Shown in pieces: positions 14,877 through 36,478 of a stretch of DNA of 64,000 bases (positions within the stretch are counted from its first letter, which is position 1; the number at the start of each line of letters is the position of its first letter). Under the pieces are notes generated by a model, which made no database searches, was not told the origin of the DNA, and saw only the letters and a list, made by a program, of their open reading frames with translations. This stretch comes from Candidatus Moraniibacteriota bacterium (GTDB taxonomy: Bacteria > Patescibacteriota > Minisyncoccia > Moranbacterales > UBA1568): the NCBI GenBank assembly GCA_013334245.1, contig JAAXXZ010000003.1, forward strand, positions 2-64,001, read 5' to 3'. Position numbers and translations under genes: made by a program.

Positions 14877-15216
14877 GGTGGTCTTGGGTTGCGGTTTTTG
14901 AGGAACGAGTGCCGGGTACAAGCTAACAGTATCGCCTCTTTCGTGTCAATGCCACGGTTTCGCGCTCCGAATGTCCGATCGGAACCAACCAGAAGGCATG
15001 AGACCAAGGAAAACGTCCTTTCGGTTCAATACCGGGATTCGGATAACGGGCCCTCGCGTCATCTGCCCTCGACTCGCGCCAGAATGCGCCATGACGGGAA
15101 GGGACGCGGTATTCAGGTTCGGTTCTTGTGTATTCGCTGCAAAATGCTATGATTTCAGCGTAAATGTGATGGTCATAACCAGTACTGCCATTTCCAAAAC
15201 ACGTTCCCGATGAGTC

Positions 15217-15350
15217 CGTCTTTGCGAGGACGTATTCGTCCGTGGCAATCCAGGGCTCAAGAATCGGGCATGGACCGCCACGGCCCGCCCTTTGCGAAGG
15301 GCAGGACTCGCGGAGACGGATGGAACGGATCCATGGAAATGGTATAAGAG
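15217..15350 (+). repeat. repeat family 3, copy 1 (candidate structured element: GTCTTTGCGAG ... GGCAATCCA ... CTGGACCGCCACG-hairpin-GACTCGCGGAGAC ... GAAATGGTAT)
   Basis: The central hairpin is gcccgccctttgcgaagggcaggac. The copies at 21378-21512 and 30345-30470 have different hairpin sequences with complementarity preserved. Confidence 0.6.
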
Positions 15351-15356
15351 AAGCAT

Positions 15357-16064
15357 ATGCAAACGGCAAATGTGGAGCTCATGCGGTCAGCTCGGGAGTC
15401 ATTGAAGGGAAAGTGGGGATTGGCTATCGGGGTCACTATCGTCTATTGCATCATCACCGGGGGCCTGCAAAGCATCAAGCAGGTCGGCCCGCTCGTAGCT
15501 ATGCTTGTGTCCGGTCCGCTCGCCGGGGGAATGGCGATATTCACATTGGCACTCGTACGGAATCAGGAGGCGAAGTTCGAGCAGCTCTTTGACGGCTTCA
15601 AATCGTTCGCGACGTATTTCGTCGCCTATCTCCTGATGCTCGTCTTCATACTTCTCTGGTCGCTTCTGCTTATCGTCCCGGGAATCATCGCGGCGATTTC
15701 GTATTCGATGACCTATTTCATCATCGCGGACAATCCGACGGTTTCGCCTTCCGACGCGCTCAAGCGGAGCAAAGAAATGATGCAGGGCAACAAGGGGAAG
15801 TTCTTCGGTCTCCAGTTACGATTCCTTGGTTGGGCGATCCTGTGCGTTTTGACCGCGGGTATCGGTTTTATCTGGCTTATCCCGTATATTCAGGTCAGCG
15901 TCGCCAAGTTCTATGAGGATTTGAAAGGAACCACCGCCGCGCCAAGTGCCCCAGCTGAGCCGGTCGCCGCGTCGCCGACGGCACCCGTATCTGATGCGCC
16001 GGTAACACAAGTGAAGGACGCCAAAGTGGACGACGGTACTCCGGTGAGTGAGGAAAAGAAGTAA
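15357..16064 (+). CDS. integral membrane protein, DUF975-like
   Basis: 235 aa. N-terminal MRSARESLKGKWGLAIGVTIVY followed by several TM segments matches the DUF975 pattern from memory. C-terminal Ala/Pro-rich tail ending EEKK. Confidence 0.65.
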   Translation: MQTANVELMRSARESLKGKWGLAIGVTIVYCIITGGLQSIKQVGPLVAMLVSGPLAGGMAIFTLALVRNQEAKFEQLFDGFKSFATYFVAYLLMLVFILLWSLLLIVPGIIAAISYSMTYFIIADNPTVSPSDALKRSKEMMQGNKGKFFGLQLRFLGWAILCVLTAGIGFIWLIPYIQVSVAKFYEDLKGTTAAPSAPAEPVAASPTAPVSDAPVTQVKDAKVDDGTPVSEEKK

Positions 16065-16072
16065 GGAACGAA

Positions 16073-16100
16073 GGGCGGAGGGATTTACCCTCCGCCTTTG
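16073..16100 (+). terminator. intrinsic terminator after the DUF975 gene
   Basis: Stem ggcggaggg/ccctccgcc (16074-16082/16088-16096), loop attta, then tttg. Confidence 0.6.
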
Positions 16101-16176
16101 CTAATCGGGAACAAGAGCCAGAAAAATAAATAATATGTAATTATCGTATTGAAGCAGAAATGAATATTTCAAATTT

Positions 16177-16695
16177 ATGGAAAAAAAATTAGCGAAAAAG
16201 GAAACACTCGTAATAAGCGCGTGGATTTGTGCAGGAAAATCATATTTGACGAAGAAATATACGAATATAATTGAGCTACCGAGCGGCGACTACAAGTATA
16301 TTTTGACGGACGAACAAAAGGCCGTTGTGAACAAGGAAAGCCTGAAATCGACAAAAAGGGAAATTAATCCCGCTTGGCCAAGAAATTATTATGATGCGAT
16401 TCTTACAGAAGTAAAAAACGGAAAATATGACATTATTCTTATCGCACCATGTATGCCTTTCTCAGAGATGCGGGACTATGGCATAAAATTCGTATTGGCG
16501 TATCCGGATCCGACGTGCAAGGAAGAGTATATTCAACGGGCAAGAAAGAGAGGTGCGAATGAAGAATTTGTAAAAAGAATCGAGACAAACATTCAGAGCG
16601 ATTTCGAAGATTTCGTAAACCAGCCGAACGAAAAGCTCATCATGCAACCGGGAGAATACTTAGAAGACGCCCTCATCAGAGCCGGTATATTATAG
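16177..16695 (+). CDS. small P-loop protein (putative kinase/NTPase) in an AT-rich cassette
   Basis: 172 aa with Walker-A-like SAWICAGKSY near the N-terminus and hydrophobic-Asp DIILIAP (Walker-B-like). The AT-rich island is about 16105-17100. Function unknown. Confidence 0.5.
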   Translation: MEKKLAKKETLVISAWICAGKSYLTKKYTNIIELPSGDYKYILTDEQKAVVNKESLKSTKREINPAWPRNYYDAILTEVKNGKYDIILIAPCMPFSEMRDYGIKFVLAYPDPTCKEEYIQRARKRGANEEFVKRIETNIQSDFEDFVNQPNEKLIMQPGEYLEDALIRAGIL

Positions 16696-16706
16696 CCGGT
16701 AAAGGT

Positions 16707-16828
16707 GTCAGGTACCTTTTTTCAAAATACTGCATAGAGAATCTCACCGATACGAATGAATCGAAGCGGGGAATGCGCTTGATGTTATTCTTTCCGGCTA
16801 GAAGAACGACCGCGACGAGGGATATGTC
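16707..16828 (+). repeat. repeat family 4, copy 2 (starts with terminator-like hairpin aaaggt-gtcagg-tacctttttt)
   Basis: gtcaggtaccttttttcaaaatactgcatagagaatctcaccgatacgaatgaatcgaagcggggaatgcgcttgatgttattctttccggctagaagaacgaccgcgacgagggatatg, followed by a tandem ccctttcgattgga x2. Confidence 0.8.
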
Positions 16829-17110
16829 CCTTTCGATTGGACCCTTTCGATTGGAAATGCTATCGAAAAAACGTAACATAATAATGCGGTCGTCAGTTGG
16901 TGTTACAATATATGCACCGGGTGACGCGAAGTGACGGCCGTCCGCTCATGTCACCTGAAAAAGAGCAGAGCCAAAAGCCGGATACATTTATTGAACATTT
17001 TTTTACGAAGACTCACGAAAAAATGTCGAAAAAGATTTAATACAAAGCTGCTCGACTCCGCCCTCTGGTCTTTGGGTGAAATCATCAGACCATAACGCTG
17101 TCTATCTATT

Positions 17111-17536
17111 ATGACCGAAGAAACCGGGATGCTTTCCGATTGTTTCTATAGGACGAGTGCCAAGGCTATGATTCTCGATGAAGGGGGGCGGTTCTTGCTC
17201 ATGCTCGAAAAGAAAGGTGTGTGGGAACTTCCTGGAGGAGGCTTGGATTTCGGCGAGAGTCCGCAGCAGTGTCTTGCCCGTGAGATACAAGAAGAAATGG
17301 GGCTCGAGGTGGTCCACATCGCCGAGAGGCCGAAGTATTTTCTGACGGCCCCGCGGAGGGACGGCCAAGGCTGGATCGCGAACATCATCTACGAGGTACG
17401 GGTCGCGAATCTGGATTTCGTACCGTCGGACGAATGCGTGGAAATTCGGTTTTTCACGGCGGTAGAGGCGTCGAAGGAGAACCTCCTCCCGCACGTGAGG
17501 GAGTTCGTGAAACTGTTTAATCCGACGCGGGAGTGA
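17111..17536 (+). CDS. Nudix hydrolase
   Basis: 141 aa. The Nudix box is GGGLDFGESPQQCLAREIQEEMGLEV. Confidence 0.85.
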   Translation: MTEETGMLSDCFYRTSAKAMILDEGGRFLLMLEKKGVWELPGGGLDFGESPQQCLAREIQEEMGLEVVHIAERPKYFLTAPRRDGQGWIANIIYEVRVANLDFVPSDECVEIRFFTAVEASKENLLPHVREFVKLFNPTRE

Positions 17537-17552
17537 TAATCTGCTATTTACT

Positions 17553-18092
17553 ATGAAACAAACTATCACCATCATCGGTACGCTTCATGCGGGGTTCACA
17601 CCGGAGGCGGAACTTCGTGCGATCATCGAGCGATATCATCCGGATTTGGTACTGGTGGAGATGGCGCAGGAAGACATGGAAAGTGGAAATATCGCCGGCT
17701 ATCCTCCGGAGATGGTCTTCGCATGCCGTTGGGCGGTCGAAAACGGTGTTTCCGTGAAGGGATTCGATTCGAAAATAGACACGTTCCGTGGTGGATTCTC
17801 GAAGGAGAGGAACGACGAGATAGTGCGAAAGCAGGGCGAGATAATCGCGAAGCATGACTGGAAGGATTTCAATCGTCCGGAGATCGATAGGTTGCTCGAT
17901 ATCCCGGAGCTTTCCAATTCGATCGACCCCGAACTGGAGGCGGAGCGTGAGGCGTTGATGCTCAAAAAAATCAGGGATTCGATCGGAGACGCCTCCGCCG
18001 TGCTTGTTCTTACGGGATGCGGACATCTGGATTTCTTGGAAAAAGCTATGCCGGATGCGGTACTGCCGCTTCGCTGCGGCACGAAGGAATAA
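17553..18092 (+). CDS. mini TraB/GumN/Tiki-family protein
   Basis: 179 aa with IIGTLHAG (motif 1), DLVLVEM and VLVLTGCGHLDFL (motif 2). Confidence 0.5.
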   Translation: MKQTITIIGTLHAGFTPEAELRAIIERYHPDLVLVEMAQEDMESGNIAGYPPEMVFACRWAVENGVSVKGFDSKIDTFRGGFSKERNDEIVRKQGEIIAKHDWKDFNRPEIDRLLDIPELSNSIDPELEAEREALMLKKIRDSIGDASAVLVLTGCGHLDFLEKAMPDAVLPLRCGTKE

Positions 18093-18122
18093 CCGATTGC
18101 TTATAAAGTATGAGACAGAAAA

Positions 18123-18803
18123 ATGGCTGCTGTTAAGAATATACATCAGTGCCTAGAAATTGATGCTAAACCATATATGACCCAGGAACTTCCGACAATT
18201 GCCGATGAGATCAGGGCGGGGAAATGGTCGGGTTTGATTCCCGAAGTGTATGCGCTGAAGGAGGTCGTCGAGAACAGCCGCCGTTGGCATAAGAACGATT
18301 CGGTATTCGACCACACCCTGCGGGCGATGGACGGTCTGGACGATGTCTTGGAGAAGGCCGGAGAAACGGTACATACATACCTCGGTCAGGTGGTCGGTCG
18401 TTATTCCCGAAAAGACCTGCTGTATCTGGCATTGCTGTTCCACGATCTGGGCAAGAAGGATACGCTTTGTGTCGTGGACGGCTTCACGAATGCCCCCGAT
18501 CATGAATCGGTGGGTGCAAAACAGGCGGTGCCGATCCTCGCCCGGCTGGGTCTTACGGAAGATGAACGCGACCATGTGGTCGCGCTCATCCAAAATCACG
18601 GAGCGACGTTCTCCATCGTAGACCCTGGGAACGACCGGTTGGAGGAGCAAATTGCGGAAATCAGGGAGCAATACGGGGATGTGTTCGTGGAAATCATCCT
18701 GTTGTCGATGGCGGATGCGCTCGGTTCGCAGATCGGTGAAACGGATCCCGCGGAATTCGCTTTCCGAATGCGTACGTACGAAGGTATTCTTGGTCGGATC
18801 TGA
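18123..18803 (+). CDS. HD-domain phosphohydrolase
   Basis: 226 aa with H...LALLFHDLGK...D, the HD motif. Resembles HD domains attached to nucleotidyltransferases. Confidence 0.7.
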   Translation: MAAVKNIHQCLEIDAKPYMTQELPTIADEIRAGKWSGLIPEVYALKEVVENSRRWHKNDSVFDHTLRAMDGLDDVLEKAGETVHTYLGQVVGRYSRKDLLYLALLFHDLGKKDTLCVVDGFTNAPDHESVGAKQAVPILARLGLTEDERDHVVALIQNHGATFSIVDPGNDRLEEQIAEIREQYGDVFVEIILLSMADALGSQIGETDPAEFAFRMRTYEGILGRI

Positions 18804-18964
18804 TAGAGAGACATTTCTTGATAGGATCGGACTGGTTATCGAAAATGTCATCGACGCGTGTCGCGAAGGCGTGTGTGCCTAGAACACCGAAATAAAAATT
18901 CATTAGACATGTCCTTTTTGAGCCAAAAATGATACTATCGTGTTACGAAAAATGGGGTCGCAAT

Positions 18965-19318
18965 ATGCGTATCTGGGACGTAGAGCCGAAATATCTGTGC
19001 CGGAAGCATCTCCTGGCCGAACATAGGGAGTTGCACGGACTTTGGAATATCCTGACCGTTCATGGCGGAACGGGCGGGTATTCGCGACACCCTGAGACAC
19101 TTCGATGGGTCGGAAAAACGAAAGCGCTGTATGCCCGACACGAGGAGCTGGTTCGTGAGTTCGCTCGGCGGGGCTACGATCACCGGACGCCGCTTGATGA
19201 GCGCCTGGCTTTCGGTTCCGAAATGCAGGACGTCTTTCGGGACACTCCCGAGGAACAGATACGGATGCTGAAAGAAAAGCAGTGCGATTGTCGAGCGCGT
19301 GGAAGCGACGTATGTTAG
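18965..19318 (+). CDS. pyrimidine-dimer DNA glycosylase (T4 endonuclease V / DenV-like)
   Basis: Starts MRIWDVEPKYLCRKHLLAEHRELHGLW, which aligns to T4 endoV [28 protein letters not shown] with the catalytic N-terminus and Glu. ATG at 18965 chosen over the track start at 18929. Confidence 0.7.
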   Translation: MRIWDVEPKYLCRKHLLAEHRELHGLWNILTVHGGTGGYSRHPETLRWVGKTKALYARHEELVREFARRGYDHRTPLDERLAFGSEMQDVFRDTPEEQIRMLKEKQCDCRARGSDVC

Positions 19319-19632
19319 GTATGTTTGTTCACGACGTGACGGGGTACGAGGACGGTGCTGTCCCAGAACCGTTCGTCACATATACGCAGCTGGAGGCCGG
19401 TTCGTATCCGGCCGGAAAAAGATGGGTCAGGTCGCAAAGCGATTTCCGTTCACATTTTCGAAAGGTTTAATAGCGTTCCATCGGCGTTTGGAGTGGACAT
19501 TATGCCCTATTTATGGGCTATTTTCGTTTTGACTTCGAAGCGGAAATCGGCTATAAGGAAGATGACGAACAGCGGACAGGATACGGATGTCGTCCGCACG
19601 CTTTCAGAAACTTAACAACAATGGAGTGAACC

Positions 19633-20139
19633 ATGATTAAAAAGATGGTTGCAGTGTGCTTTGCGATATCCGTCGTTCTTTTCGGAAATATCGCAGTAAA
19701 TGCCGAGAACAACAACGAAGCGTATCTCGGGAATATGGCCTACCGGCCCATCGAGTGGAATACGCGATCACAGCTGGGCCGGAAGTACTGCCAGCTGCGA
19801 GGCGGGGAGTATGCAAGCGATGCGGGCATATACGCCGAGACCCTGAAGATGACGGGCCACGTCGTGGGGGACCTGAACGGGGACGGAATTCCCGATGCCA
19901 TCGTCGTACTGGTGCATTCTTTCGGAGGATCGGGGTCTGTCTTGCAGATGGCGGCGGTGATAGGGTATCCCGGCAGGAGACTCGAACACGTGGCATCGAT
20001 TAACCTTGGCAAGGGGGTCCACGTGATCTATGTCGACATCGGACGTGGAGGGAAAATCGAAGTGAAATTGACGACGGACGACAATCTGATTTCGTGTCGT
20101 ACGTATCACTTCAGAGGAAACCGGATCACCAAAGGTTGA
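19633..20139 (+). CDS. secreted hypothetical protein (signal peptide)
   Basis: 168 aa. N-terminal MIKKMVAVCFAISVVLFGNIAVNA signal peptide. DLNGDGIPD is a calcium-binding-like loop. Confidence 0.5.
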   Translation: MIKKMVAVCFAISVVLFGNIAVNAENNNEAYLGNMAYRPIEWNTRSQLGRKYCQLRGGEYASDAGIYAETLKMTGHVVGDLNGDGIPDAIVVLVHSFGGSGSVLQMAAVIGYPGRRLEHVASINLGKGVHVIYVDIGRGGKIEVKLTTDDNLISCRTYHFRGNRITKG

Positions 20140-20325
20140 TCCGGGTATAGGGGGAGCTGTCTACCAGACGCTCCCTCTATATATTTTCCAACATGGCAGC
20201 ACGGGCTTGCCGTTCGGATCGCATGTGAACAGGATAACGAAAGTCGTGTCTGACAGACTTTTTTAGTGCGGATATTTGATATACTGGAAACAAGAAACGA
20301 AGCCTGATTTTTTTGAAGGAGACCT

Positions 20326-21342
20326 ATGAGCATGGAATCGCCGGATAATCATCAGAATGTTCCGGCTAGGACCCCCGAATCGGAGCGGGCGCTGGAGCTG
20401 CTTCGCGTTTGGCGGGAACGGACGCCGGTAATCCTGAAGTCGTCCTCGCCGATACGCAAGAACGGACTGATCGAAAAGGCCGGCTTCAATCCGGACAATA
20501 TACGGGTGATGGTTTCTCCCGATTTGGTCGAGGAGAACGTGTTTGAAACGACGTCCGCCGATTCACGACTCGCGGAAGCATGTGCGGTCGCCAAAGGCGC
20601 GTCGCCGGAAACCATCCCTCCTGAAGCGATCGTCTTCGCGTTCGATACGTTGGTCGTCTGGTATCCCGAGTGTACGGACCCGGCGCATCCGGAGAACGTC
20701 GAATCGTGGCCCGGAGCAAGTATCCGGAAACCGAAGAATATTACAGAGGCGAAAGAGACGACGAAACGACTTTTTCTAGGTGTGCTTGCGAACCACGCGA
20801 ATTTCCGAGTGCACGCGAAGATGTCGGGAGTGCCGGAAGGGGACAATGCAGACAAGCGTGAAGAAAATTCGAAAAAGGATTTCGCGTCCGGCATACACGC
20901 GGTTACGAGCCTCGATGTCCGCTTTCCGAATTCCGAATCCTCGGAAAATTATCGCGACAGGATTATCGCGCGACCGCAACGACTTTATGGACTGATCGAG
21001 GGGATGGATATCGATACCGATCGCATTACGACCGAAACCGTGACGTCGTGGAAATGCGGCGACGGTGGTTCTGTCGATGAGGCGCTTGATGAAATCATCG
21101 AAAAAATGTTCAAACGCATGAAGGACGTCGGCATAGATCCGTTGAAGATCTGCGGGGGAGTGGCGTACAGTGATGACGGAGTTCGGGAACTGCTCGGCAT
21201 CACCGAGATCGCGGACGTGTGTCCAGACGGTCTGAAGTCGGATATTCCGGATCGAAGCATCTATTCCGGTTATCCCGAAACGCTGGTCAATAACGTTTTG
21301 AATCGCAGGGCGTTCGAAATCGCGACGGGCAAGAAGAGCTGA
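20326..21342 (+). CDS. Maf-like nucleoside-triphosphate pyrophosphatase, unusually long with insertions
   Basis: 338 aa. VILKSSSPIRKNGLIEKAGF corresponds to Maf LILAS-SPRR..LL..G.F, and IVFAFDTLVV to Maf GADTVV. The C-terminal GIDPLKICGGVAYSDDG resembles Maf GEPLDKAGAYGIQG. About 120 extra residues relative to a typical Maf. Confidence 0.5.
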   Translation: MSMESPDNHQNVPARTPESERALELLRVWRERTPVILKSSSPIRKNGLIEKAGFNPDNIRVMVSPDLVEENVFETTSADSRLAEACAVAKGASPETIPPEAIVFAFDTLVVWYPECTDPAHPENVESWPGASIRKPKNITEAKETTKRLFLGVLANHANFRVHAKMSGVPEGDNADKREENSKKDFASGIHAVTSLDVRFPNSESSENYRDRIIARPQRLYGLIEGMDIDTDRITTETVTSWKCGDGGSVDEALDEIIEKMFKRMKDVGIDPLKICGGVAYSDDGVRELLGITEIADVCPDGLKSDIPDRSIYSGYPETLVNNVLNRRAFEIATGKKS

Positions 21343-21377
21343 CGTCTCAATGCCATTTCAGGCGGATCCGGGGCAAT

Positions 21378-21512
21378 CGGTCTTTGCGAGACATACATAT
21401 GTTCATAGGTGTGTCGTGGCAATCCATTCGTATCCATTAGGAATCGGATACGGGGGCATATTTCTGGACCGCCACGCCCCGCGCTTTGCAAAGAGCGGGA
21501 CTCGCGGAGACA
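21378..21512 (+). repeat. repeat family 3, copy 2
   Basis: ggtctttgcgagac...gtcgtggcaatccattcg...ctggaccgccacgccccgcgctttgcaaagagcgggactcgcggagac. Confidence 0.6.
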
Positions 21513-21587
21513 GAGTAGTGTTGCGATGATACGCATGTTCGGATGAATTAGAGCCTATCTCAAAAATACGACAAGCACGGTTTTGTT

Positions 21588-21696
21588 ATCCCGGTCTCCT
21601 GACCAGCGTATACTGGTTGACCCGGGATCTAGGAAATATGCCGTTTTGGATTCCGGCACTTGTTCCGCGAATGCCGGGCGGAGGCTGGAATGACAG
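21588..21696 (+). repeat. repeat family 2, copy 2 (with a 23-bp internal insertion)
   Basis: tatcccggtctcctgaccagcgtatactggttgacccgggatct...gaatgccgggcggaggctggaatgacaggg. Confidence 0.6.
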
Positions 21697-21784
21697 GGAA
21701 AAGAATCTTGAGAAATGCTCAAGTAATATGTGAAGAACGAACAAACCCGGAGCTTCATGAAGAAGATCCGGGTTGTTTTGTCGA

Positions 21785-22234
21785 TCAATGATGCTTCATT
21801 GTTTCGACGGTGCTGTAAACCAGTGGGCCGGCCAGTACTTTGTCGTTGTACGTTGACCGTTCGATGATACTTTCTGCCAAGCGACCTGCGCTGCGGTTTG
21901 AACATACATATGACGCCCGCATGTCTGGTCCTACGAAAATAACGTAGTAGCCAATCCTTTTGCCGGCGTTACCCGTCTTGAGCTGGCAATATATTTTTTC
22001 GTATTCTAATGGCGCGAGCTTGCGATCGGATAAAATAATCGCGAATCCGTAGCTTGTAGACCTCTTATTCATTTTTTCAAGGACGAGGTCGTTCCTCATC
22101 ACCTGAAACGACGACATTTCGTTATACAGCCGCGCTTTCGGGTCTGCATGGAAGTACTCGGTCGCCGCTGCTGTGAGCGAAAATGATACGGAAATGAAGA
22201 GCGCAAGAAGCGCGGCAAGAAAAGTTCTTTTCAT
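21785..22234 (-). CDS. secreted hypothetical protein
   Basis: ATG at 22234 preceded by GAGG. The signal peptide is MKRTFLAALLALFISVSFSLTAAA. No recognised domain. Confidence 0.5.
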   Translation of the reverse strand: MKRTFLAALLALFISVSFSLTAAATEYFHADPKARLYNEMSSFQVMRNDLVLEKMNKRSTSYGFAIILSDRKLAPLEYEKIYCQLKTGNAGKRIGYYVIFVGPDMRASYVCSNRSAGRLAESIIERSTYNDKVLAGPLVYSTVETMKHH

Positions 22235-22458
22235 GATATGCCTCATGGATGGCGGGCAGATGCCCTGGTTTGAATTGTTAATTAAATACAAATGCTATTA
22301 TAGCACTATTAACGACTGATGTCAATCATCGTCGGAATATGGCTGAGAAAAGGCGCAAATCGATATCGAGATTTTGTGGCATAGATTTTTTGCAGAACCG
22401 TATTTTGGCAGGTATCAAGGGGGAGTATACTTGTAATGAAGTACTTCGAAGTAAAAGT

Positions 22459-22932
22459 ATGACGCAAAACGATCTGATATCGCTTGTTCAGGAAATCGTA
22501 AAAGACGCCGTACGGCTGAAGGACGCGTACACCGATCTGCGGGACGTGACGGTCGGGTACGCGTGTGTTTTCGCGCACGGAGATGCGGAGTATGCCGAGT
22601 TGAGGAAAGCCGCCGAGTCGATGGGTCAGGAAATCAAGTCGACGCCGACTGGATCCGTATTTTTGGTACAGCCGATGCCGACCGTGGCAGGATCGCTTCG
22701 GGTCCTGAAAATCCGGATTCCGGACGAGACCCGTACCGAACGTGGCGATGCCGACTTCAATGTTCCGGATTATCAGAAGTTCAGAATAGCTGTCATGGGT
22801 ACGCCCGGATTCACGATTATCCCGCGGGCCGATTGCGAGATGATCGAACTTATGGAATCTGGCGCCGACGTCCGCGTCTATTTTTCCGATCCGCCGGTCG
22901 AGAAACAGCTTGGTTTGGCCACGTTGGAATGA
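22459..22932 (+). CDS. hypothetical protein
   Basis: The plus-strand frame (MTQNDLISLVQEIVKDAVRLKD...YACVFAHGDAEYAELRKAAESMG) is more protein-like than the overlapping Arg/His-rich minus-strand ORF 22309-22956. Confidence 0.35.
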   Translation: MTQNDLISLVQEIVKDAVRLKDAYTDLRDVTVGYACVFAHGDAEYAELRKAAESMGQEIKSTPTGSVFLVQPMPTVAGSLRVLKIRIPDETRTERGDADFNVPDYQKFRIAVMGTPGFTIIPRADCEMIELMESGADVRVYFSDPPVEKQLGLATLE

Positions 22933-23015
22933 ATCAGAATTGGAGACACTCTTCACATGAAAAGGCGAAAAGCGTACACTTTGATTGACATCCGTAATGT
23001 TTCAAATGCTTTCGT

Positions 23016-23915
23016 ATGAAATTCCTTCAGACGGTGCGTGGCAGCGTCTATAACCCGGCCTTTTACAGGCTGGTGCTTTCGGGTGCCGGACCGTCCGCGA
23101 TGCGATACTTTTCGAGTGTCGTAGCGCTCGTAGCCATCGTGGTGACGATCATGTCGGCGGCGTCGTTCTTTCCGTGGCTGTCGTCGACAGGCGGTATCGA
23201 GAAGCTCCGCACGACCGTGCTTTCGGCGTACCCCGACGAGCTTGCGCTCCAGTATCGGGACGGACATGTGACGTCCAATGTCGAAGAGCCGTATTTCATT
23301 CCGATGCCGGCCGCGTCTGGAGCGTCCTCGTCCGACGATCGGACACCGCAGAATCTTCTGGTCATCGATACGACCCATACGGTGGTTCCGCAGGATCTCG
23401 ATCGGTATCATGCGGCGGCGATACTTGCCAGGGACGCCATATGGACGAAGGATTCGAAAGGAATCCAGGTGCATACGTTCGAGGATTGGAAGAGGGATCC
23501 GTTTACGCTCGATGCGGCGGCGGTGACCGGTTTTGTCGATCGGATCGCGGAGATGCTGATGCCGATGATCATCATAGGATTCGCATTGCTTCCGTTGGTG
23601 CTGTTCGTGGCGTTTTCCATCGGGTATCTCGCATACATGCTCTTCGGCACACTGGTTATCATGATCGTCGGCAAGGTGCGGAAGATCGATCTGTCGTACT
23701 CCGTCTCGTATCGGCTGGGATTGTTCCTCATCACGCTTCCGGTAGCATACGGCCTGCTTCGGTCGGCATTTCCGATTCTCAATGTCCCGTTCCTGTTCAC
23801 GATCATCCTGGCGATCGCCGCCTACGCGAATATGGGGCCCGCCGAAGCCAGACCCGTCACCGATGAGAAGATGGACCTGTGGGGAACGGAGCCGGAGAAG
23901 ACCCCATCGGTATGA
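23016..23915 (+). CDS. polytopic membrane protein, DUF1189-like (tentative)
   Basis: 299 aa. N-terminal MKFLQTVRGSVYNPAFYRLV followed by TM helices matches the DUF1189 pattern from memory. Confidence 0.5.
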   Translation: MKFLQTVRGSVYNPAFYRLVLSGAGPSAMRYFSSVVALVAIVVTIMSAASFFPWLSSTGGIEKLRTTVLSAYPDELALQYRDGHVTSNVEEPYFIPMPAASGASSSDDRTPQNLLVIDTTHTVVPQDLDRYHAAAILARDAIWTKDSKGIQVHTFEDWKRDPFTLDAAAVTGFVDRIAEMLMPMIIIGFALLPLVLFVAFSIGYLAYMLFGTLVIMIVGKVRKIDLSYSVSYRLGLFLITLPVAYGLLRSAFPILNVPFLFTIILAIAAYANMGPAEARPVTDEKMDLWGTEPEKTPSV

Positions 23916-24115
23916 AAAGGGATATCCGGGTCGAAGTTCGGCGGTGTTCCGAAGGCCTCCGACCGTAGGCCTGTTTCAAGTGTCCGTCAGGAAGCGCTTG
24001 TGAGGCGTTGTTCGCGGATACGACATGCTGCCGTCGCATATCTGCGTTCGGTTGTTGCATGATATAATCCTGCCAGGCCGCTTTGGCTATCCATACGTAT
24101 TCGTTTTCATTTCCT

Positions 24116-25228
24116 ATGAAGAAGATCATCCTGATGGTGGTCGGATGGCTGTTCGTGGTCAACCTGTTCGGGTATGCCGCGCTGAACCGGTTCAATCTGA
24201 CCCCGGATACGTCGTACAAGTGGATCTTGCCGGAAAATTTTCGGGTACCGACGTCGTCCGATCTCGTGGACATGCATAACCGATGGGATTCGTATTGGTA
24301 TCTCGATATCGTTCACAACGGGTATTACCTGAAGACGGATAACACCTTGGCGAACGTCGTTTTCTTTCCGATGTACCCCGCGCTCATTCTCGTCGTCGGC
24401 ACCGTCCTTTTCGGGAACTACGTCCTTGCCGGATGGCTGTTGAGCATGGCTTTTCTTGTCGCGTCGTGTGTCTATCTGTACCGGTACGTGAAGGAGTTCC
24501 ATCCGGATATCGATCCGGAACTGCCGATCGTGCTGATGCTCGTTTTCCCGACGGCGTTCTTCTTCAACGTGATCTATACCGAGTCGATCTTCCTGTTCAT
24601 GACGATCACGGCCTTCTATTACGCATTCAGAAAGGAGTATCGGCTTGCGGGACTGTTCGCGTTCCTCGGGGCGCTGACGCACAGCAACGGTGTGTTTCTG
24701 GCATTGCCGATCCTGTGGAAGATCGTCGAGGAAAACGGATGGAAGAATATGCTGGCTCCGAAGACGTGGTGGAAACTGTACCCGGTCGTTTTCGCGCCGA
24801 TCGGCAGCTTCCTGTTCCTCGGGTATGACTATTGGAAGTTCGGCGACCCGCTTCTGTTCTTCAAGATCCAAAGCAATTGGGGCCGCTCGTTTTCGATCAA
24901 CTGGGAACACTTCTCGACGTTTTCACATCCGTCGATCACGAACATGTGTATCGATATCTTCCTCGCCGTATTCATCATCTCGGCCGTCGTCGCGGTATGG
25001 CGGAAGCTTTCACCCCTCTACGCGATTTTCATGTCGACCACGCTTATCGCTGCATTCACGTCGGGGACGCTTATGAGCGTAGGGCGATACAGTCTCGTGA
25101 TGTTCCCGCTGTTCATCCTGCTTGCGGGCGTGAAAGACCGATACGCGAGAATGGGATGGATCCTCGCATCGACGCTGTTCCTCGCCCTGGATATCATCCT
25201 GTTCGTCAACAATTATTGGGCGGGATAG
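24116..25228 (+). CDS. GT-C family glycosyltransferase, PIG-V / mannosyltransferase-like
   Basis: About 370 aa, about 10 TM segments, with RWDSYWYLDIVHNGYYL...VVFFPMYP matching the PIG-V/GT-C WDS..Y..IA..GY...FFPLYP signature. Confidence 0.6.
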   Translation: MKKIILMVVGWLFVVNLFGYAALNRFNLTPDTSYKWILPENFRVPTSSDLVDMHNRWDSYWYLDIVHNGYYLKTDNTLANVVFFPMYPALILVVGTVLFGNYVLAGWLLSMAFLVASCVYLYRYVKEFHPDIDPELPIVLMLVFPTAFFFNVIYTESIFLFMTITAFYYAFRKEYRLAGLFAFLGALTHSNGVFLALPILWKIVEENGWKNMLAPKTWWKLYPVVFAPIGSFLFLGYDYWKFGDPLLFFKIQSNWGRSFSINWEHFSTFSHPSITNMCIDIFLAVFIISAVVAVWRKLSPLYAIFMSTTLIAAFTSGTLMSVGRYSLVMFPLFILLAGVKDRYARMGWILASTLFLALDIILFVNNYWAG

Positions 25229-25290
25229 CTGCAGGGGATGATTTTTCGCGGCTTAACCGGACATTTGACGAAAAGTGTGCAGAAAGTTCA

Positions 25291-25330
25291 AAAGCGGTCA
25301 GATGTTGTGTCTGTCCGCTTTTGATTTTGC
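25291..25330. terminator. bidirectional intrinsic terminator
   Basis: Stem aagcggtcaga/tctgtccgctt with loop tgttgtg, flanked by tttgattttg on the plus side and T-rich on the minus side. Confidence 0.6.
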
Positions 25331-25347
25331 TCGATAGGAGCCGCAGG

Positions 25348-25722
25348 TTACATGCCGTAACACCCGAATGACGGGATCTCGATCCCGAGAAGCACGAAGA
25401 CGAATTCGAATGCTTCTGCGGCCGCATCGCCGATCGTGTCGGCGAGGATGTCCGGAATCCATTCCAGACATGCGTCGAGGGCGGACTCCATCGTCTCGAC
25501 GACCTTTTCAAGAACATTTCCGGCTGCACTGATGACCGCTGTTTCAGCGATCTGGATGCCGTGGCCGACGAGGCTGAGCGTATCAGCCACGCCTTCGACG
25601 ATACCCATGCCGAATTCGATTGGTGCGAACAGGATGTTTTTGAGATGCGTTATTACTGTGCCAAGCCAGTTGGTAGGCTCGGAAATGGTTTGCGGGCAAG
25701 CCGCGTCTGCAGGTGTGCTCAT
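25348..25722 (-). CDS. hypothetical protein
   Basis: ATG at 25722 preceded by AGGAAC (aggaacatagcaATG). Protein MSTPADAACPQTISEPTNW..., amphipathic with no recognised domain. Confidence 0.45.
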   Translation of the reverse strand: MSTPADAACPQTISEPTNWLGTVITHLKNILFAPIEFGMGIVEGVADTLSLVGHGIQIAETAVISAAGNVLEKVVETMESALDACLEWIPDILADTIGDAAAEAFEFVFVLLGIEIPSFGCYGM

Positions 25723-25785
25723 TGCTATGTTCCTGGATAATATTGTGAAAGGCTTTCGCTGAACTAAAGCCACGGTCTGTCAAGA

Positions 25786-25816
25786 TTTCTCAGAAGGATA
25801 TTGCACAGCAATCCTT
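25786..25816 (+). promoter_or_regulatory. near-perfect inverted repeat (operator-like) upstream of the DUF3467 / peptidase S51 / CYTH / methyltransferase gene cluster
   Basis: CAGAAGGATATTGC-aca-GCAATCCTTTCTG, arms of 13-14 bp. Confidence 0.4.
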
Positions 25817-25887
25817 TCTGAAAGAGTATCCGATTTAGTTGCGTTTCGTGATAGTATGTACGGGGTGAAATCGATAGGACACGAAAT

Positions 25888-26184
25888 ATGACCATGAACC
25901 AACCCTCGCCGCAGCAGATCCAGATCAAAGCAAGCGACGAAAGGCTGAAGGGGGAATATGCGAACACGATGCAGGTCATGCATACGAAAGAGGAGTTTGT
26001 GATCGACTTCCTGAACGTCTTTCCTCCCTCGGGCACGTTGAATGCCAGAATCATCGTGAGTCCGGGACATTTCAAGCGCATTCTTCTTGCCATGCAGGAG
26101 AACCTGAAAAAGTACGAGTCCGGTTTCGGCGAGGTTTCGCCGTCTGATGCTCCGAAGACTCGGATCGGTTTCGGTGAGGAATAA
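25888..26184 (+). CDS. DUF3467-family small protein
   Basis: 98 aa. YANTMQVMHTKEEFVIDFLNVFP...RIIVSPGHFKRILLAMQENLKKYESGFGE matches the DUF3467 pattern (Y.N...i.ht.eEfviDF......a.v.sRiimsP.hakrll.al.eni.kyE..fGei). Confidence 0.6.
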   Translation: MTMNQPSPQQIQIKASDERLKGEYANTMQVMHTKEEFVIDFLNVFPPSGTLNARIIVSPGHFKRILLAMQENLKKYESGFGEVSPSDAPKTRIGFGEE

Positions 26185-26205
26185 GGACGAAAGACAAACG
26201 GTACT

Positions 26206-26865
26206 ATGAAACTGTTGCTCACATCCGGTGGAATCACGAACGAGTCGATCGAACAGGCTTTGCTCGGATTGGTCGGAAAGCCGGCCGATGAGACGTCACT
26301 CGTGTTCGTTCCCACCGCCTCGAACGTCGAACCCGGGGATAAGAGTTGGCTCATCGACGATCTGGTGAGGCTGAAGAGGATCGGCTTCAAGATCATCGAC
26401 ATCGCCGACATATCGGCAATCGACAAGGATGTGTGGCTTCCGAGGGTGGAAGCGGCGGATATCCTGTATTTCGAAGGAGGTGATACGTACCATCTCCTGA
26501 AGTGGGTGCGTCAATCCGGCCTGGGCGCCGAACTGTCGGGGCTGCTCACGAACAAGGTATATGTCGGAGTCAGTGCGGGAAGCATGATAACGAACACGTC
26601 GTTGAATCTTCGGGTAAGCCACGAGATTTACGCGGAAGGGTTCGATCAGACTGCGGACATACCCGCACTCGGATTTGTAGACCTGCAGTTCCTTCCGCAT
26701 TTGAACGCATCTTTCTTTCCGACCGCGACGGAAGAACAAATACGCGAGGTGGTAAGCGGGGTGGCAGGGGTGACGTACGCAGTGGATGATGCGTGCGCCC
26801 TGCGAATCGTCGACGGGGACGTTTCCGTCGTCGGTGAAGGGAAGTGGTTAACGATAAACGGTTGA
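26206..26865 (+). CDS. peptidase S51 family (dipeptidase E / cyanophycinase-like)
   Basis: 219 aa with MKLLLTSGG...YFEGGDTYHLL...VYVGVSAGS, containing the S51 catalytic Ser context. Confidence 0.75.
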   Translation: MKLLLTSGGITNESIEQALLGLVGKPADETSLVFVPTASNVEPGDKSWLIDDLVRLKRIGFKIIDIADISAIDKDVWLPRVEAADILYFEGGDTYHLLKWVRQSGLGAELSGLLTNKVYVGVSAGSMITNTSLNLRVSHEIYAEGFDQTADIPALGFVDLQFLPHLNASFFPTATEEQIREVVSGVAGVTYAVDDACALRIVDGDVSVVGEGKWLTING

Positions 26866-26875
26866 TCGCACCGAT

Positions 26876-27487
26876 ATGAGTACCGTGAACAACGAGGAGA
26901 TAGAAGTGGTGTTTCTCGAGATCGACCAAGACGACATTGAGCGTCGGTTGGCGGGAATCGGGGCGGAGAAGGTGGGCGATATCCTGTATCGTCATACCGC
27001 TTTCGATTATCCCGATTATCGGCTGAACAGCGACAATGCGTGGATACGTCTTCGTGACGAAGGGGACGAGATAGTCCTGGCATACAAGAAGCGTCTTGGG
27101 GTCACCTCTCAGGATGGCAGTACGAACGACGAGGGAATGGAAGAGATCGAATTGGTCGTGGACGATTACTATATGACGAAGGCATTTCTTGCCAAGATAG
27201 GACTCATCGAGAAACACGAGGGAGAGAAGAAAAGGACACGATGGCGGAAAGGGGAGACCGAGTTCGATATCGATACGTGGCCGGGGATACCGACCATGCT
27301 CGAGATCGAAGCGCCGTCGTGGGACGACATCGATATCGCGACGGAGGCTTTGGGACTCCGAAAGGAAGACCGGAAGATCTGTTCGGTGAACCAGGTGTAT
27401 CAGCTGTACGGCATGAACGTGAATGATTATCGGAAGATCGCTTTCGATGGACTGGTGCGGAAGGACGGGTTATCGGTCGATGTGTAA
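26876..27487 (+). CDS. CYTH-domain protein (triphosphate tunnel metalloenzyme / CyaB-like)
   Basis: 203 aa. N-terminal EIEVVFLEID (E-x-E-x-K-like start of the CYTH tunnel), acidic residues throughout and EIELVVDD. Confidence 0.65.
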   Translation: MSTVNNEEIEVVFLEIDQDDIERRLAGIGAEKVGDILYRHTAFDYPDYRLNSDNAWIRLRDEGDEIVLAYKKRLGVTSQDGSTNDEGMEEIELVVDDYYMTKAFLAKIGLIEKHEGEKKRTRWRKGETEFDIDTWPGIPTMLEIEAPSWDDIDIATEALGLRKEDRKICSVNQVYQLYGMNVNDYRKIAFDGLVRKDGLSVDV

Positions 27488-27502
27488 CGACATGCAAACG
27501 CT

Positions 27503-27925
27503 ATGCTGTGGCTATTGTTCGTGTTTCTGACTATCCTGACGTGGGGGAGTTACAACGTGCTGTTGAAATTGGCCGAGCCACACATCAGCCAGTCATGGGC
27601 GTTGTTCCTGATCGGTGTCGTACAGGTGGTCGTAGGAGTGTTCTTCATATGGTATCAGAGAGCGAACGATGAGGCGCTGCTTACGATAAAGGGCGCGATG
27701 ATAGCGGTCATTGCAGGCCTTGTGTTCGTCATGGGCATGATTTTTTTCCTGTACGCCTTCAAATTCAAAGCTCCGGCATCCGTCGCCATCGCGCTGTATA
27801 CCGTAGGCGCCCTACTGATCGGCGTGATTTCCGGCCCGCTCGTTTTCCATGAAGTACTGACGTCGAGAATCCTGACGGGTATAGGGTTTGCACTGGTCAG
27901 TATCGCTATCCTGACGCTCAAATAA
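27503..27925 (+). CDS. small 4-TM membrane protein (EamA/SMR-like)
   Basis: 140 aa with four hydrophobic helices. Resembles half of a DMT transporter. Confidence 0.5.
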   Translation: MLWLLFVFLTILTWGSYNVLLKLAEPHISQSWALFLIGVVQVVVGVFFIWYQRANDEALLTIKGAMIAVIAGLVFVMGMIFFLYAFKFKAPASVAIALYTVGALLIGVISGPLVFHEVLTSRILTGIGFALVSIAILTLK

Positions 27926-27927
27926 AT

Positions 27928-28623
27928 ATGCAAAACCTACCGACCGCGGAAGTGTACGAGAAGGAGTTCAGGTATATGCCTTGGGGCATCCTTATTCACG
28001 AGATCATGGATCGTATCGCGGAGGATGTTCCGCAGGAAGGAAAGGTGTTGGATTTATTGTGCGGTACCGGATATCTTCTTTCTGAACTAAAGAAGAGGCG
28101 TCCGGATATCTCGTTCGTCGGCGTCGATATGGAATCCGAATTCATCGATTTCGCGATGGAACGGTATGACAGTATCGAGTTCAAGGCGGCGGATGTCCTG
28201 AAGTGGACGGATGATCGCCGATTCGACGCCGTTCTCTGTACCGCCGGCCTGCATCATCTGCCGTATGAAATGCAGGACGCGTTCGTCGGGAAGGTCGCCG
28301 GCTTCGTGGGGGAGGGCGGATTCGCGATCATCGCCGACCCGTATATCGACGATTATGCGGACGAGATCGAACGAAAACTGGCGTCGGCGAAACTCGGATA
28401 TGAGTACCTGGCGGCGACCATCAGAAACGGCGGCACCGATGACGTGATCGATGCGGCCCTGACTCTGATCGGCAATGATATATATACCGTAGAGTTCAAG
28501 ACCTCGGTTGCGAAGAATCGGCCCGTTTTCAGCCGATATTTTGGGAAGGTCGAGGAACATAAAACATGGCCGGAAACCGACGGAGGAGGGTATGGTGATT
28601 ATTATTTCATTCTCAGACGTTAA
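27928..28623 (+). CDS. class I SAM-dependent methyltransferase
   Basis: 231 aa. Motif I is VLDLLCGTGYL. Acidic post-I FVGVDME and DAVLCTAGLHH. Confidence 0.75.
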   Translation: MQNLPTAEVYEKEFRYMPWGILIHEIMDRIAEDVPQEGKVLDLLCGTGYLLSELKKRRPDISFVGVDMESEFIDFAMERYDSIEFKAADVLKWTDDRRFDAVLCTAGLHHLPYEMQDAFVGKVAGFVGEGGFAIIADPYIDDYADEIERKLASAKLGYEYLAATIRNGGTDDVIDAALTLIGNDIYTVEFKTSVAKNRPVFSRYFGKVEEHKTWPETDGGGYGDYYFILRR

Positions 28624-28707
28624 CAGGGTTTCTAGAGAGAGGGATTCTTCATTTTACGGTCTTCTGATATACTGGACGGGTCGGAAATAACAACGTAAGA
28701 AAAAAAT

Positions 28708-29694
28708 GTGAAAAAGGGTATACTTATCGGCGCGCTCGTCGTGCTTTTGTTGTCGGGAGCGGCGTTCGTCGCCATTTCCCGTACCGGCTTAGTACGGTTG
28801 ACCCCCGGGAAATCCGTCATCGGGGCCGAGGCCGCGAAAGCGAAAATGGAAGCGTTCGTCCGTGACGGCCTCGGTGTTCCCGCGACGGCCGAAGTGATGG
28901 TCTCCGCAGCTACCGAGGAAGCGGGAGTCTACAAGGCGACCGTGACCATTCAGAAGAAGGATTACCCGATGTACCTTTCACTCGATGGAAAGAAGTTCTT
29001 TCCGAACGGGATGGACACCGAGGTGAAGTCGGCCGAAGCGGCTGCTGCCAAGGCGCAGCCCCAGGATATTCCGAAGTCGGCTAAGCCCACGGTGCAGCTG
29101 TTCGTCATGAGTTATTGCCCGTATGGAACGCAGATCGAGAAGGGGATTCTGCCCGTTCTTGAGACACTCGGCGACAAGATAGACTACACGTTGGAGTTCG
29201 TCTCGTACGCGATGCATGACAAGAAGGAGCTCGACGAGAACCTTCGTCAGTACTGCATCCGGATTGAAGAGCCCTCGAGACTCAATGCATATCTAGGCTG
29301 TTTCCTGAAGAAGGGGCAGGGAACCGAGGCGGCATGCCTGAAGACGGCCGGCGTAAATGTCGCGAAGAACGCCGCGTGCATGAAGGCGACGGACACGAAG
29401 TTCGACATCACGAAGAACTTCAACGACAAGAGTACCTATTCCGGCTCGTTTCCCCCGTTTAACGTCGACAAGGCGGACAACGACAAGTATGCGGTGGCCG
29501 GATCCCCGACGCTCGTAATCAACGGCGTCTCGGCCGATTCGCAGCGCGATCCGGCATCGCTCCTGAAGACGATCTGTTCCGGATTCGACAACGCGCCCGC
29601 GGAATGTTCGAAGACGCTTTCGACGACCGCGCCGGCTGCAGGATTCGGTGAAGGTGCGGGGAGCGGCGCGTCGAACGCCAATTGCGGAAGTTAG
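28708..29694 (+). CDS. exported DsbA-like thioredoxin-fold protein with monothiol active site (CPYG)
   Basis: 328 aa. N-terminal anchor/signal. The thioredoxin-like core is VQLFVMSYCPYGTQIE (DsbA-like position, second Cys replaced by Gly). Further Cys pairs downstream. Confidence 0.55.
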   Translation: MKKGILIGALVVLLLSGAAFVAISRTGLVRLTPGKSVIGAEAAKAKMEAFVRDGLGVPATAEVMVSAATEEAGVYKATVTIQKKDYPMYLSLDGKKFFPNGMDTEVKSAEAAAAKAQPQDIPKSAKPTVQLFVMSYCPYGTQIEKGILPVLETLGDKIDYTLEFVSYAMHDKKELDENLRQYCIRIEEPSRLNAYLGCFLKKGQGTEAACLKTAGVNVAKNAACMKATDTKFDITKNFNDKSTYSGSFPPFNVDKADNDKYAVAGSPTLVINGVSADSQRDPASLLKTICSGFDNAPAECSKTLSTTAPAAGFGEGAGSGASNANCGS

Positions 29695-29720
29695 TCAAAA
29701 AATCTGGTATAGAAAGACTG

Positions 29721-29749
29721 AAAGCCGTCCTTATGGGCGGCTTTCTTTT
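29721..29749 (+). terminator. intrinsic terminator
   Basis: aaagccgtcc-ttat-gggcggcttt followed by cttttg. Confidence 0.6.
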
Positions 29750-29760
29750 GCGAAGCGTTT

Positions 29761-30162
29761 TCATGACGTGAGGGCGAGCAGCTGCTTCGCGGTTACGCAT
29801 GCGGACCTGAACAAGTTCAGGCTTGTGCAGATACATTCGCCCAGGAGCCAGACGAACGCGTCCGGAATGGGATTCGGTGACAGTTCCCAATCCTTGAACT
29901 CCAGGACTTCGAACCGGAATCCGAGTTCCTTTTCTCCATCCGATTCACGAACCGGTTCCACGAAGACCAGCCCAACCAGGCACAGGCCATGTCGCGGATA
30001 CGGGTAGAAGTATCCTTCGACGATGAGCTTGCCGGTAGCGTCGCGGTATTTGTAGGGTCGCGTGTGGACGGAACCCGGGTTATCGCCATTCAGCAACCCC
30101 GTGAGTTGTAGCGCCTTAATAAAGGCACGTCTGGATTTTTCATCCTGGTATTCCTGATTCAT
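29761..30162 (-). CDS. hypothetical protein
   Basis: ATG at 30162 with strong GGAGGAGGA RBS (agaggaggaggaacggcaATG). 133 aa, no recognised domain. Confidence 0.55.
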   Translation of the reverse strand: MNQEYQDEKSRRAFIKALQLTGLLNGDNPGSVHTRPYKYRDATGKLIVEGYFYPYPRHGLCLVGLVFVEPVRESDGEKELGFRFEVLEFKDWELSPNPIPDAFVWLLGECICTSLNLFRSACVTAKQLLALTS

Positions 30163-30344
30163 TGCCGTTCCTCCTCCTCTTGCGCATTGTTAATTTTAGG
30201 CCAAAAACGAACCCTTTTGCTTGTGGTCGGCATCATAGGGAATCAAGGGGAATCCGTCAATCGTATCGTGGACCGACGAGCGTAAAATAATACCATTTCT
30301 AAATAATACATTCCCTCTATAGCTGTCGTTCGAGTCCGTACTCG

Positions 30345-30470
30345 GGCGGTCTGTCCCGTGTATGCCGGAGTAGCAATCCAGTATTTATAGCACAGACCTG
30401 GACCGCCACGGATTTCCGAAGACGCAAATCCTTGCGGAGACAGGAAGGCGGTTTCTTAGAAATGGTATGA
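30345..30470 (+). repeat. repeat family 3, copy 3
   Basis: ggtctgtcccg...gtagcaatccag...ctggaccgccacggatttccgaagacgcaaatccttgcggagac...agaaatggtatgac. Confidence 0.6.
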
Positions 30471-32323: not shown

Positions 32324-32697
32324 CGGCTGAAATGGAGAAAGACAGGCCGTTAGGTCTGTCTTTCGTTTGTTGACGTTTGGCAGGCGTTACGCAGTGACTG
32401 CCTGTCCGTCAGAGGTTTCTGCTGCCTGAGGCTTTAACGGAGTGCCGTCTGATACTTCTGACGATCCGCAGCCTTGTCCAGAGGACAGAGCGCATCCTGG
32501 GCATTTTGGGCCACCGAAGTTGGGGCAGCCTGGCTTATTGCAGGTTTCGATTTCTGGCATTCACGTTCTCCGTTAGTGTTCTAGAAGTTAAGACAACAAT
32601 AATTTTTGATTATAGACGAAAACCCTCGTTTTGTCAATTGTTGCCGAAGAACGGGACGTGGTATGATACAGGGCCGAAACAAGTAATTCATGACGCT

Positions 32698-33066: not shown

Positions 33067-33118
33067 ACGGACGCAGACATCCGGGAGGAAGGAGGGGATA
33101 AGTAACGAATGGAACGAT

Positions 33119-34195: not shown

Positions 34196-34220
34196 CGTTC
34201 ATTTTTGGCGACGCACAAAA

Positions 34221-34246
34221 AAACGCCCCCGCGTGGGGCGTTTTTT
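34221..34246 (+). terminator. intrinsic terminator
   Basis: aaacgcccc-cgcgt-ggggcgtttttt. Confidence 0.8.
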
Positions 34247-35617: not shown

Positions 35618-35632
35618 ACAAGGAATACGAAT

Positions 35633-36466: not shown

Positions 36467-36478
36467 ACCAAACAAGCT

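Follow-up and report, generated by a model that had tools for sequence, protein, structure and literature searches.

Three Copies of a Four-Armed Repeat in the Window

The window considered here is a 64-kb stretch of DNA (64,000 nucleotides, to which all coordinates refer) from contig JAAXXZ010000003.1 of a Candidatus Moraniibacteriota bacterium (assembly GCA_013334245.1). It contains three copies of a repeat of ~100 bases with a four-armed fold, every one of them on the + strand. An initial annotation of this DNA had described three copies with conserved blocks around a variable hairpin that keeps its pairing, and had read this pattern as a functional RNA rather than a DNA repeat. We find that the copies and their compensatory changes are real, and that the repeat is probably a quasi-palindromic interspersed repeat family of Candidatus Moranbacteria that is at least partly mobile. 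This family resembles the repetitive extragenic palindromes (REP), bacterial interspersed mosaic elements (BIME), and REP doublets forming hairpins (REPIN) of other bacteria, with a subfamily packaged as miniature inverted-repeat transposable elements (MITEs).

In the case of copy 1, the whole element (15186–15344) is bounded by a diverged outer inverted repeat (TGCCATTTCC ... GGAAATGGTA), and ends 12 nt 5′ of the ATG (15357) of a gene that Pfam assigns to DUF975, for the product of which an exact-protein lookup returned no record. Its core (15216–15319; 85.5 bits with our covariance model R1, fold z = −4.8) is closed by an outer stem, GUCU/AGAC (15218–15221/15314–15317). Within this stem lie a left arm, UUGC/GCAA (15222–15225/15245–15248), that encloses the hairpin GACGTATTCGTC, a central arm, UCCAG/AUGGA (15249–15253/15270–15274), and a right arm, CCGC/GCGG (15275–15278/15310–15313), that encloses the hairpin singled out in the initial annotation, with its variable distal part (GGCCCGCCCTTTGCGAAGGGCAGGA) at 15282–15306.

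The core of copy 2 (21378–21513) has its blocks at 21380–21390, 21416–21427, 21464–21475, and 21501–21511, with long inserts in both the left and the central arms, and with the variable distal hairpin of the right arm (GCCCCGCGCTTTGCAAAGAGCGGGA) at 21476–21500. It starts 35 nt 3′ of the stop codon of the open reading frame (ORF) at 20326–21342 and sits between convergent ORFs. A remnant of the left outer repeat, TGCCATTTC, is found at 21351–21359, and the right outer repeat is absent.

Copy 3 is a 177-bp element (30291–30467) with a perfect 12–13 bp terminal inverted repeat (TIR; TACCATTTCTAA/TTAGAAATGGTA) and the flanks TAA/TGA. Its core (30323–30443, 62.1 bits) comprises a degenerate 5′ block, GTCGTTCGAG (30325–30334), the GTAGCAATCCAG block (30370–30381), CTGGACCGCCAC (30398–30409), the distal hairpin GGATTTCCGAAGACGCAAATCC (30410–30431), and CTTGCGGAGAC (30431–30441), with an extra insertion of ~20 nt between the degenerate block and the GTAGCAATCCAG block. 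The limits first given for copy 3 (30345–30470) thus need correction: the degenerate block places its 5′ limit at ~30323, ~20 nt earlier than assumed.

Both GCAATCCA and GCGGAGAC are common to all three copies, as is TGGACCGCCACG, which is preceded in copy 1 by A instead of C. The hairpins between CCACG and GCGGAGAC are unlike in sequence, with the pairing intact in all three copies. The blocks reported as shared by only two copies are indeed present where described, with GAAATGGTAT lying 3′ of copies 1 and 3 (15336–15345 and 30459–30468) and GTCTTTGCGAG lying 5′ of copies 1 and 2; the latter, however, also has its degenerate counterpart, GTCGTTCGAG, in copy 3. The model R1 was built from 28 copies from other genomes together with the 3 window copies, and a scan of the window with this model finds only these three sites (85.5, 62.1, and 56 bits), with the next independent match at 13 bits. 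As the exact 11-mer GGACCGCCACG occurs three times in the window, the model scan returns exactly three sites, and ~100 homologous copies are found elsewhere, the observation is beyond chance.

Fold Architecture and Covariation

The element is a quasi-palindrome of two inverted half-units of ~45 nt, each of them a hairpin in which a basal stem of 4 bp and a small, conserved internal loop are followed by a distal stem-loop that varies freely. The left half-unit reads GUCU-UUGC-GAG-(hairpin)-CGUG-GCAA-UCCAG, and the right half-unit, read on the other strand, is the same save for two transition pairs (CCGC/GCGG for UUGC/GCAA). Between the halves lies a short central hairpin, and GUCU/AGAC closes them, with the left half being of T-type (UUGC...GCAA) and the right half of C-type (CCGC...GCGG). 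Together, the two half-units form a four-arm junction on either strand. 

Two folds compete for this sequence: an inter-half fold, which is that of minimum free energy (MFE) and joins the halves through an 11-bp P1 and a 12-bp P3, and an intra-half fold, consisting of the GUCU/AGAC stem and three arms. Our first covariance model used the inter-half four-way junction. Comparison of both folds on 102 aligned copies gives 96.5% of cells paired for the intra-half fold vs 86.6% for the inter-half fold, in which AA/CC is left unpaired in ~89 of 98 copies and one pair is broken in 37 of 98, and the inter-half junction was rejected on this basis. In addition, a quartet analysis indicates that changes fall within a half, and the alleles GUGGC/GAAGC and GCCAC/GCUUC combine freely between halves. 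Because of the T/C difference, each half pairs within itself and not with the other half.

The initial annotation had suggested that CCGC/GCGG could close the variable hairpin, and this right basal helix is in fact the best-supported pairing in the family, being paired in 99.5% of cells with 15 double C-G to U-A substitutions (8 + 7) across the 102 copies. In the central arm, three of five pairs covary over the same alignment. The distal hairpins covary at 4/4 and 9/9 pairs, values that were reached in none of 500 shuffles (31 sequences), and occur as 52 and 58 distinct sequences among 70 copies. Compensatory change is therefore real in every arm, and the retained pairing of the central hairpin that had been proposed from three copies is borne out on both 31 and 102 sequences. 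The conserved nucleotides lie almost entirely within helices, not in loops or in the junction.

We note that a GC-rich subfamily from soil and groundwater metagenomes (loci L067, L092, L156, and L094, where L numbers denote loci examined outside the window) has a left-arm insert, GAGCGAAGCGAC, and a right-arm insert that is its complement, GTCGCTTCGCTC, such that the halves could pair along their whole length. This insert contains GCGAAGC, the sequence of the very stable d(GCGAAGC) DNA mini-hairpin.

Occurrence in Other Genomes and Metagenomes

The model building and wider scan proposed in the initial annotation yield ~100 further copies in Moranbacteria genomes and metagenomes. Scanning one genome per species with a sequence pattern gave 57 loci, ~35 of which are true copies, located in 11–12 metagenome-assembled genomes (MAGs) and often several to a contig. 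The carriers are nearly all Candidatus Moranbacteria/Moraniibacteriota MAGs, together with unclassified freshwater bins, and pattern matches in Nitrospirales, Streptomyces, and Desulfobaccales were rejected as coincidences in coding sequence. A metagenome search anchored on the outer blocks gave 117 loci, in which the covariance model identifies ~76 further copies. The element is absent from the viral collection searched, where the sole match to the TIR string lies inside a coding region.

A close relative of the window is Moranbacteria bin-649 (91–93% identical), with L056 being 93% identical to window 32502–37508 and L013:2906–4369 being 91% identical to window 766–2229. Copy 3 is orthologous to the copy in L056, which belongs to this bin, and a second orthologous set is kept in L007, L037, L076, and L107. 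Copy 3 and its L056 orthologue are ~95% identical, as are their flanks, and relative to this orthologue copy 3 has gained pair-breaking changes (GUAGC, CUUGCGG), which are consistent with drift.

Strand Symmetry and Gene Context

The model recognizes the reverse strand of the element as well (41.6 and 33.8 bits, vs 85.5 bits forward), and the MFEs of the two strands are nearly equal, with a mean difference of 1 kcal mol–1 and the + strand being the more stable in 13 of 38 copies. Fully symmetric copies exist (L158, L133:6997, and L162). Non-Watson–Crick pairs in the variable stems, read on the + strand, comprise 4 G·U vs 11 A·C, a count that does not single out the + strand RNA as the form under selection.

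Orientation relative to genes varies: among 40 copies, ~12 run antisense between codirectional genes and ~9 run sense, with 8 situated between divergent and 5 between convergent genes. The neighboring genes are unrelated (DUF975, engB, a polA-like gene, an AAA_14/DUF4143 ATPase, AbiEii, and unknowns). Solitary half-units also occur, as do tandem mosaic clusters mixed with other short repeats (L035, L026, and L162). Scans around copies 1 and 3 revealed no conserved promoter or terminator associated with the element.

The right terminal repeat ends in TGGTA, which, with a TTA/TAA target, reads TGGTATTAT/TGGTATAAG (window 15333–15357; L135 and L095). This resembles an outward extended −10 promoter, 12 nt before the start of the DUF975 gene in the window, and is not called by the consensus scanner.

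Directly upstream of many copies are short tandem oligonucleotide repeats that form BIME-like mosaics (L024:~1000–1080 and ~5020–5085; L002:~7150–7195; L042/L040; L029) and differ by genome, being of the AATTTCGA, CTGACAA/ACAACT, or CTTGTGA type. In L035:290–400 (ELA496 Moraniibacteriota, minus strand), a 36-nt GCCCGCCCGAAACGCTTGGCGTATCGCTGCGGACGG-like unit is repeated three times in frame in what looks like a gene for an ABC-transporter ATPase, where it separates the Walker A region from the N-terminus, and related GGCGGGCCTGCCCGAAATGC units form intergenic tandem arrays at ~2880–3080 of the same locus.

Terminal Repeats, Target Duplication, and an Empty Site

The TACCATTTCTAA/TTAGAAATGGTA TIR of 12–13 bp is shared by copy 3, L056, L135, L095, L051, and L013, and is diverged in copy 1, L003, and L007; the elements that bear it are noncoding and 157–179 bp long. 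A 3-bp TNA target-site duplication (TSD) is perfect at four of eight independent TIR-bearing insertions (TTA three times and TCA/TGA once), and three more match at two of three positions. Such a duplication recalls IS5/Harbinger-type elements.

One insertion can be compared directly with its empty site. At 745–770 (+ strand), the window reads gaagTGAC at 751/752 and the element is absent, whereas the filled counterpart, L013:2716–2894, is a 179-bp copy with TGA/TGA flanks directly after the stop codon of ORF 72–752. The filled site, gaagTGA(TACC...GGTA)TGAC, thus differs from the empty gaagTGAC by the element and a 3-bp duplication, between genomes that are ~91% identical.

A second L013 copy (L013:4370–4590, vs window 2232–2470) offers no such clean comparison, as ~240 nt of unrelated sequence occupy this position in the window; the region has therefore undergone replacement, not a simple insertion or deletion.

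Known RNAs, Candidate Enzymes, and Other Features of the Window

Searching the window against Rfam 15 at gathering thresholds returned only two tRNAs, at 34317–34389 (− strand) and 37537–37608 (+ strand), and permissive scans of copies 1 and 2 and of the canonical copy L009 gave chance-level matches only (DUF1874, CRISPR-DR35, and RAGATH-33). The DUF1874 RNA (RF02953) is a multistem motif found in consecutive intergenic regions, for which an unusual attC-like single-stranded DNA (ssDNA) site has been suggested (Weinberg et al. 2017, PMC5737381). It has a GGC-AUCCA-GG stretch superficially similar to one in the repeat, but its arms are arranged differently, copy 1 scores 13.9 bits against a gathering threshold of 42 (E = 4.9), and neither copy 2 nor L009 matches at E ≤ 10; membership was therefore rejected.

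A search for a mobilizing enzyme covered the genes around the copies. All-against-all clustering of 380 ORFs from copy-bearing loci recovered only syntenic orthologues, with no transposase or recombinase; no Y1_Tnp-like ORF family recurs in the 8-kb loci around matches, and no integrase was found among ORFs neighboring the copies. As for a parent insertion sequence (IS), the TIR pairs found 0.1–4 kb apart in 175 loci and the window are chance pairs only, and none encloses a transposase.

Candidate Phyla Radiation (CPR) genomes typically have many ORFs without a Pfam match, and in the window these are 72–752, 2245–5358, 17102–18851, 19633–20139, 22309–22956, 24083–25228, and 28708–29694; ORF 20326–21342, upstream of copy 2, has only a sub-threshold Maf-like match. 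Between ~47000 and ~52000, gene orientation in the window changes from mostly + (~30–47 kb) to mostly − (~52–63 kb), which may be a replication-related landmark.

Interpretation and Alternatives

Taking the above into account, we consider a REP/BIME/REPIN-like repeat family with a MITE-packaged subfamily to be the probable explanation. What we observe is the structure, the covariation, the multicopy interspersion, the independence of orientation, the half-units and mosaics, the TIRs and TSDs, and an empty site. The step to a functional RNA, as taken in the initial annotation, does not follow from these data: the element is an inverted doublet with strands that fold about equally well, part of the family has TIRs, TSDs, and an empty site, and there is no Rfam match. 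Mechanistically, a trans-acting protein would recognize the conserved nucleotides at the foot of the hairpins and would copy or move the element, probably via a single-stranded or extruded DNA form. One subfamily, including copies 1 and 3, is further packaged as a classical MITE, with 12–13 bp TIRs and a 3-bp TNA duplication. If the element acts at the RNA level at all (as a terminator, insulator, or stabilizer, or by way of an outward promoter at its TGGTAT end), such effects would be by-products of cotranscription and not a gene-specific switch, although an RNA-level role may be possible for cotranscribed copies.

Several observations weigh against this explanation. Neighboring copies more than 1 kb apart share their orientation 13 times vs 3. 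The T/C asymmetry is retained in ~90% of copies, a poor fit to a plain selfish MITE. Across genomes that differ widely in G+C content, it is the core that stays conserved and the TIRs that vary; a typical DDE-type MITE would show the reverse, and the pattern suggests that the core itself is under selection. The outer inverted repeat is above chance in only 11–14 of 93 copies, and therefore the MITE form is a subfamily, with the core-only majority not explained by a TIR/TSD mechanism, and the clean empty site is one case only. Finally, no transposase, REP-associated tyrosine transposase (RAYT), or other recurrent protein was found next to the copies in the loci searched, and a Pfam search of ~40 ORFs (~30 of them from the window) detected no transposase or recombinase. 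Because of the conserved core, the T/C asymmetry, and the shared orientation, two rivals retain a modest probability, namely a module that functions as RNA or ssDNA and an attC-like cassette boundary.

The first alternative, which we regard as unlikely, is that the copies are multicopy structured small RNA genes or a protein-binding RNA module, with a four-arm product that was spread by duplication or by MITE hitchhiking. This would account for covariation in all arms, for a junction core conserved over many genomes (including AT-rich ones) as flanks and TIRs vary, for folds far more stable than shuffled controls (z = −4.8 for copy 1 and −4.2 for copy 2), and for the retention of orthologous copies noted above. 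Against it, both strands fold equally well, the G·U vs A·C count shows no + strand preference, almost all conserved nucleotides are in helices, half-units and mosaic clusters occur, no conserved promoter or terminator was found around copies 1 and 3, and copy 3 has gained its pair-breaking changes no more slowly or quickly than its flanks change neutrally. In a broader form, which we likewise hold to be unlikely, the four-arm core, with a branch point that the T-type/C-type asymmetry locks in place, would itself be the functional module, either as a new class of protein-binding structured RNA or as a Holliday-junction-like ssDNA site of an unrecognized recombination or cassette-shuffling system in CPR bacteria, with the MITE copies a mere vehicle.

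It is quite improbable, in our view, that the repeat is a single-stranded DNA recombination site, attC-like or Holliday-junction-like, that bounds gene cassettes. Such a site is brought to mind by contig JAAXTX010000012.1 (L024 and L002), where elements alternate with ORFs on one strand and the genes are of accessory type (AAA_14/DUF4143 and unknowns), by the copies that flank AbiEii in L035, and by an imperfect palindrome of fixed asymmetry with mostly co-oriented neighboring copies. Against this, the neighboring ORFs include no integrase and the elements no attC-type R′/R″ (GTTRRRY) boxes, L162 has four tandem copies within 700 bp and not one ORF separating them, numerous copies are flanked by housekeeping genes to which they are antisense, and the TIR/TSD subfamily points to transposition. 

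Lastly, a cis-regulatory 5′-leader RNA or riboswitch for DUF975, engB, and other downstream genes, in line with one reading in the initial annotation, is highly improbable: although the cores of copies 1 and 3 end 37 and 82 nt before same-strand start codons, and L001 and L048 lie 33 nt upstream of the polA-like gene, this reading is already contradicted by the orientation statistics (copies in either orientation to genes, ~12 antisense to both neighbors, and copy 2 between convergent genes), by functionally unrelated downstream genes and tandem arrays, and by the absence of an Rfam match.

Implications

CPR (Patescibacteria) genomes are tiny and usually called streamlined, and the family described here shows that an intergenic repeat can nevertheless be abundant in some of them, under structural constraint and in part mobile. 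The family explains recurrent “structured RNA-like” intergenic signals that are otherwise liable to be misannotated as riboswitches, and it provides a marker for typing strains of Moranbacteria and for following the dynamics of their genomes. In practical terms, the main lesson is that compensatory change on its own is no indication of an RNA gene when it is seen in an inverted-repeat element, and we advise corresponding caution in covariation-based discovery of noncoding RNAs, because inverted-repeat DNA elements give the same compensatory pattern. Should the core prove to have its own function or a dedicated enzyme, this would point to an undescribed mobilization or recombination system in an uncultured phylum.

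Comparison with Known Repeat Systems

The resemblance to integron attC sites lies in the imperfect palindromes (attC sites being thought to act as folded single strands), the fixed asymmetries, and the cassette-like alternation with ORFs on one contig. In contrast to attC sites, the repeat has no R″/R′ core sites (RYYYAAC ... GTTRRRY), with ends that read GTCT.../...AGAC or TACCATTTC.../...GAAATGGTA instead, it has no integrase among the neighboring ORFs, and it occurs in tandem copies without ORFs and between core genes.

The TIR-bearing subfamily is closer to bacterial MITEs such as the Correia elements of Neisseria, RUP and BOX of Streptococcus, and ERIC, being noncoding and 157–179 bp long with TIRs of 12–13 bp, a TNA duplication, filled/empty polymorphism, a stable fold-back, and insertion beside stop codons and promoters. 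Unlike in these elements, the conserved part is the internal core, with TIRs that are variable or absent in most copies, the core covaries helix by helix over ~100 copies, and no parent IS was found.

REP/BIME/REPIN elements of Enterobacteria and Pseudomonas are mobilized by RAYT, an IS200/IS605-type Y1 transposase. The Moranbacteria units differ from REPs and REPINs in being longer and branched, in forming a four-arm doublet, in residing in a CPR lineage, and in that no RAYT was found in copy-bearing loci; one subfamily also has TIRs and a 3-bp TSD, which REPINs do not. The literature searched contained nothing relevant on REP or MITE repeats in Patescibacteria or Moranbacteria. We regard the repeat as a new family within a known kind of element, and the phylum as one for which that literature has no earlier description of such repeats. 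With REP, BIME, and REPIN elements, it shares short imperfect-palindrome units of two slightly different types paired in inverted orientation, the occurrence as singlets, doublets, and mosaic tandem clusters, a strictly intergenic location in either orientation, the ability of both strands to fold, and the combination of vertically retained copies with turnover.

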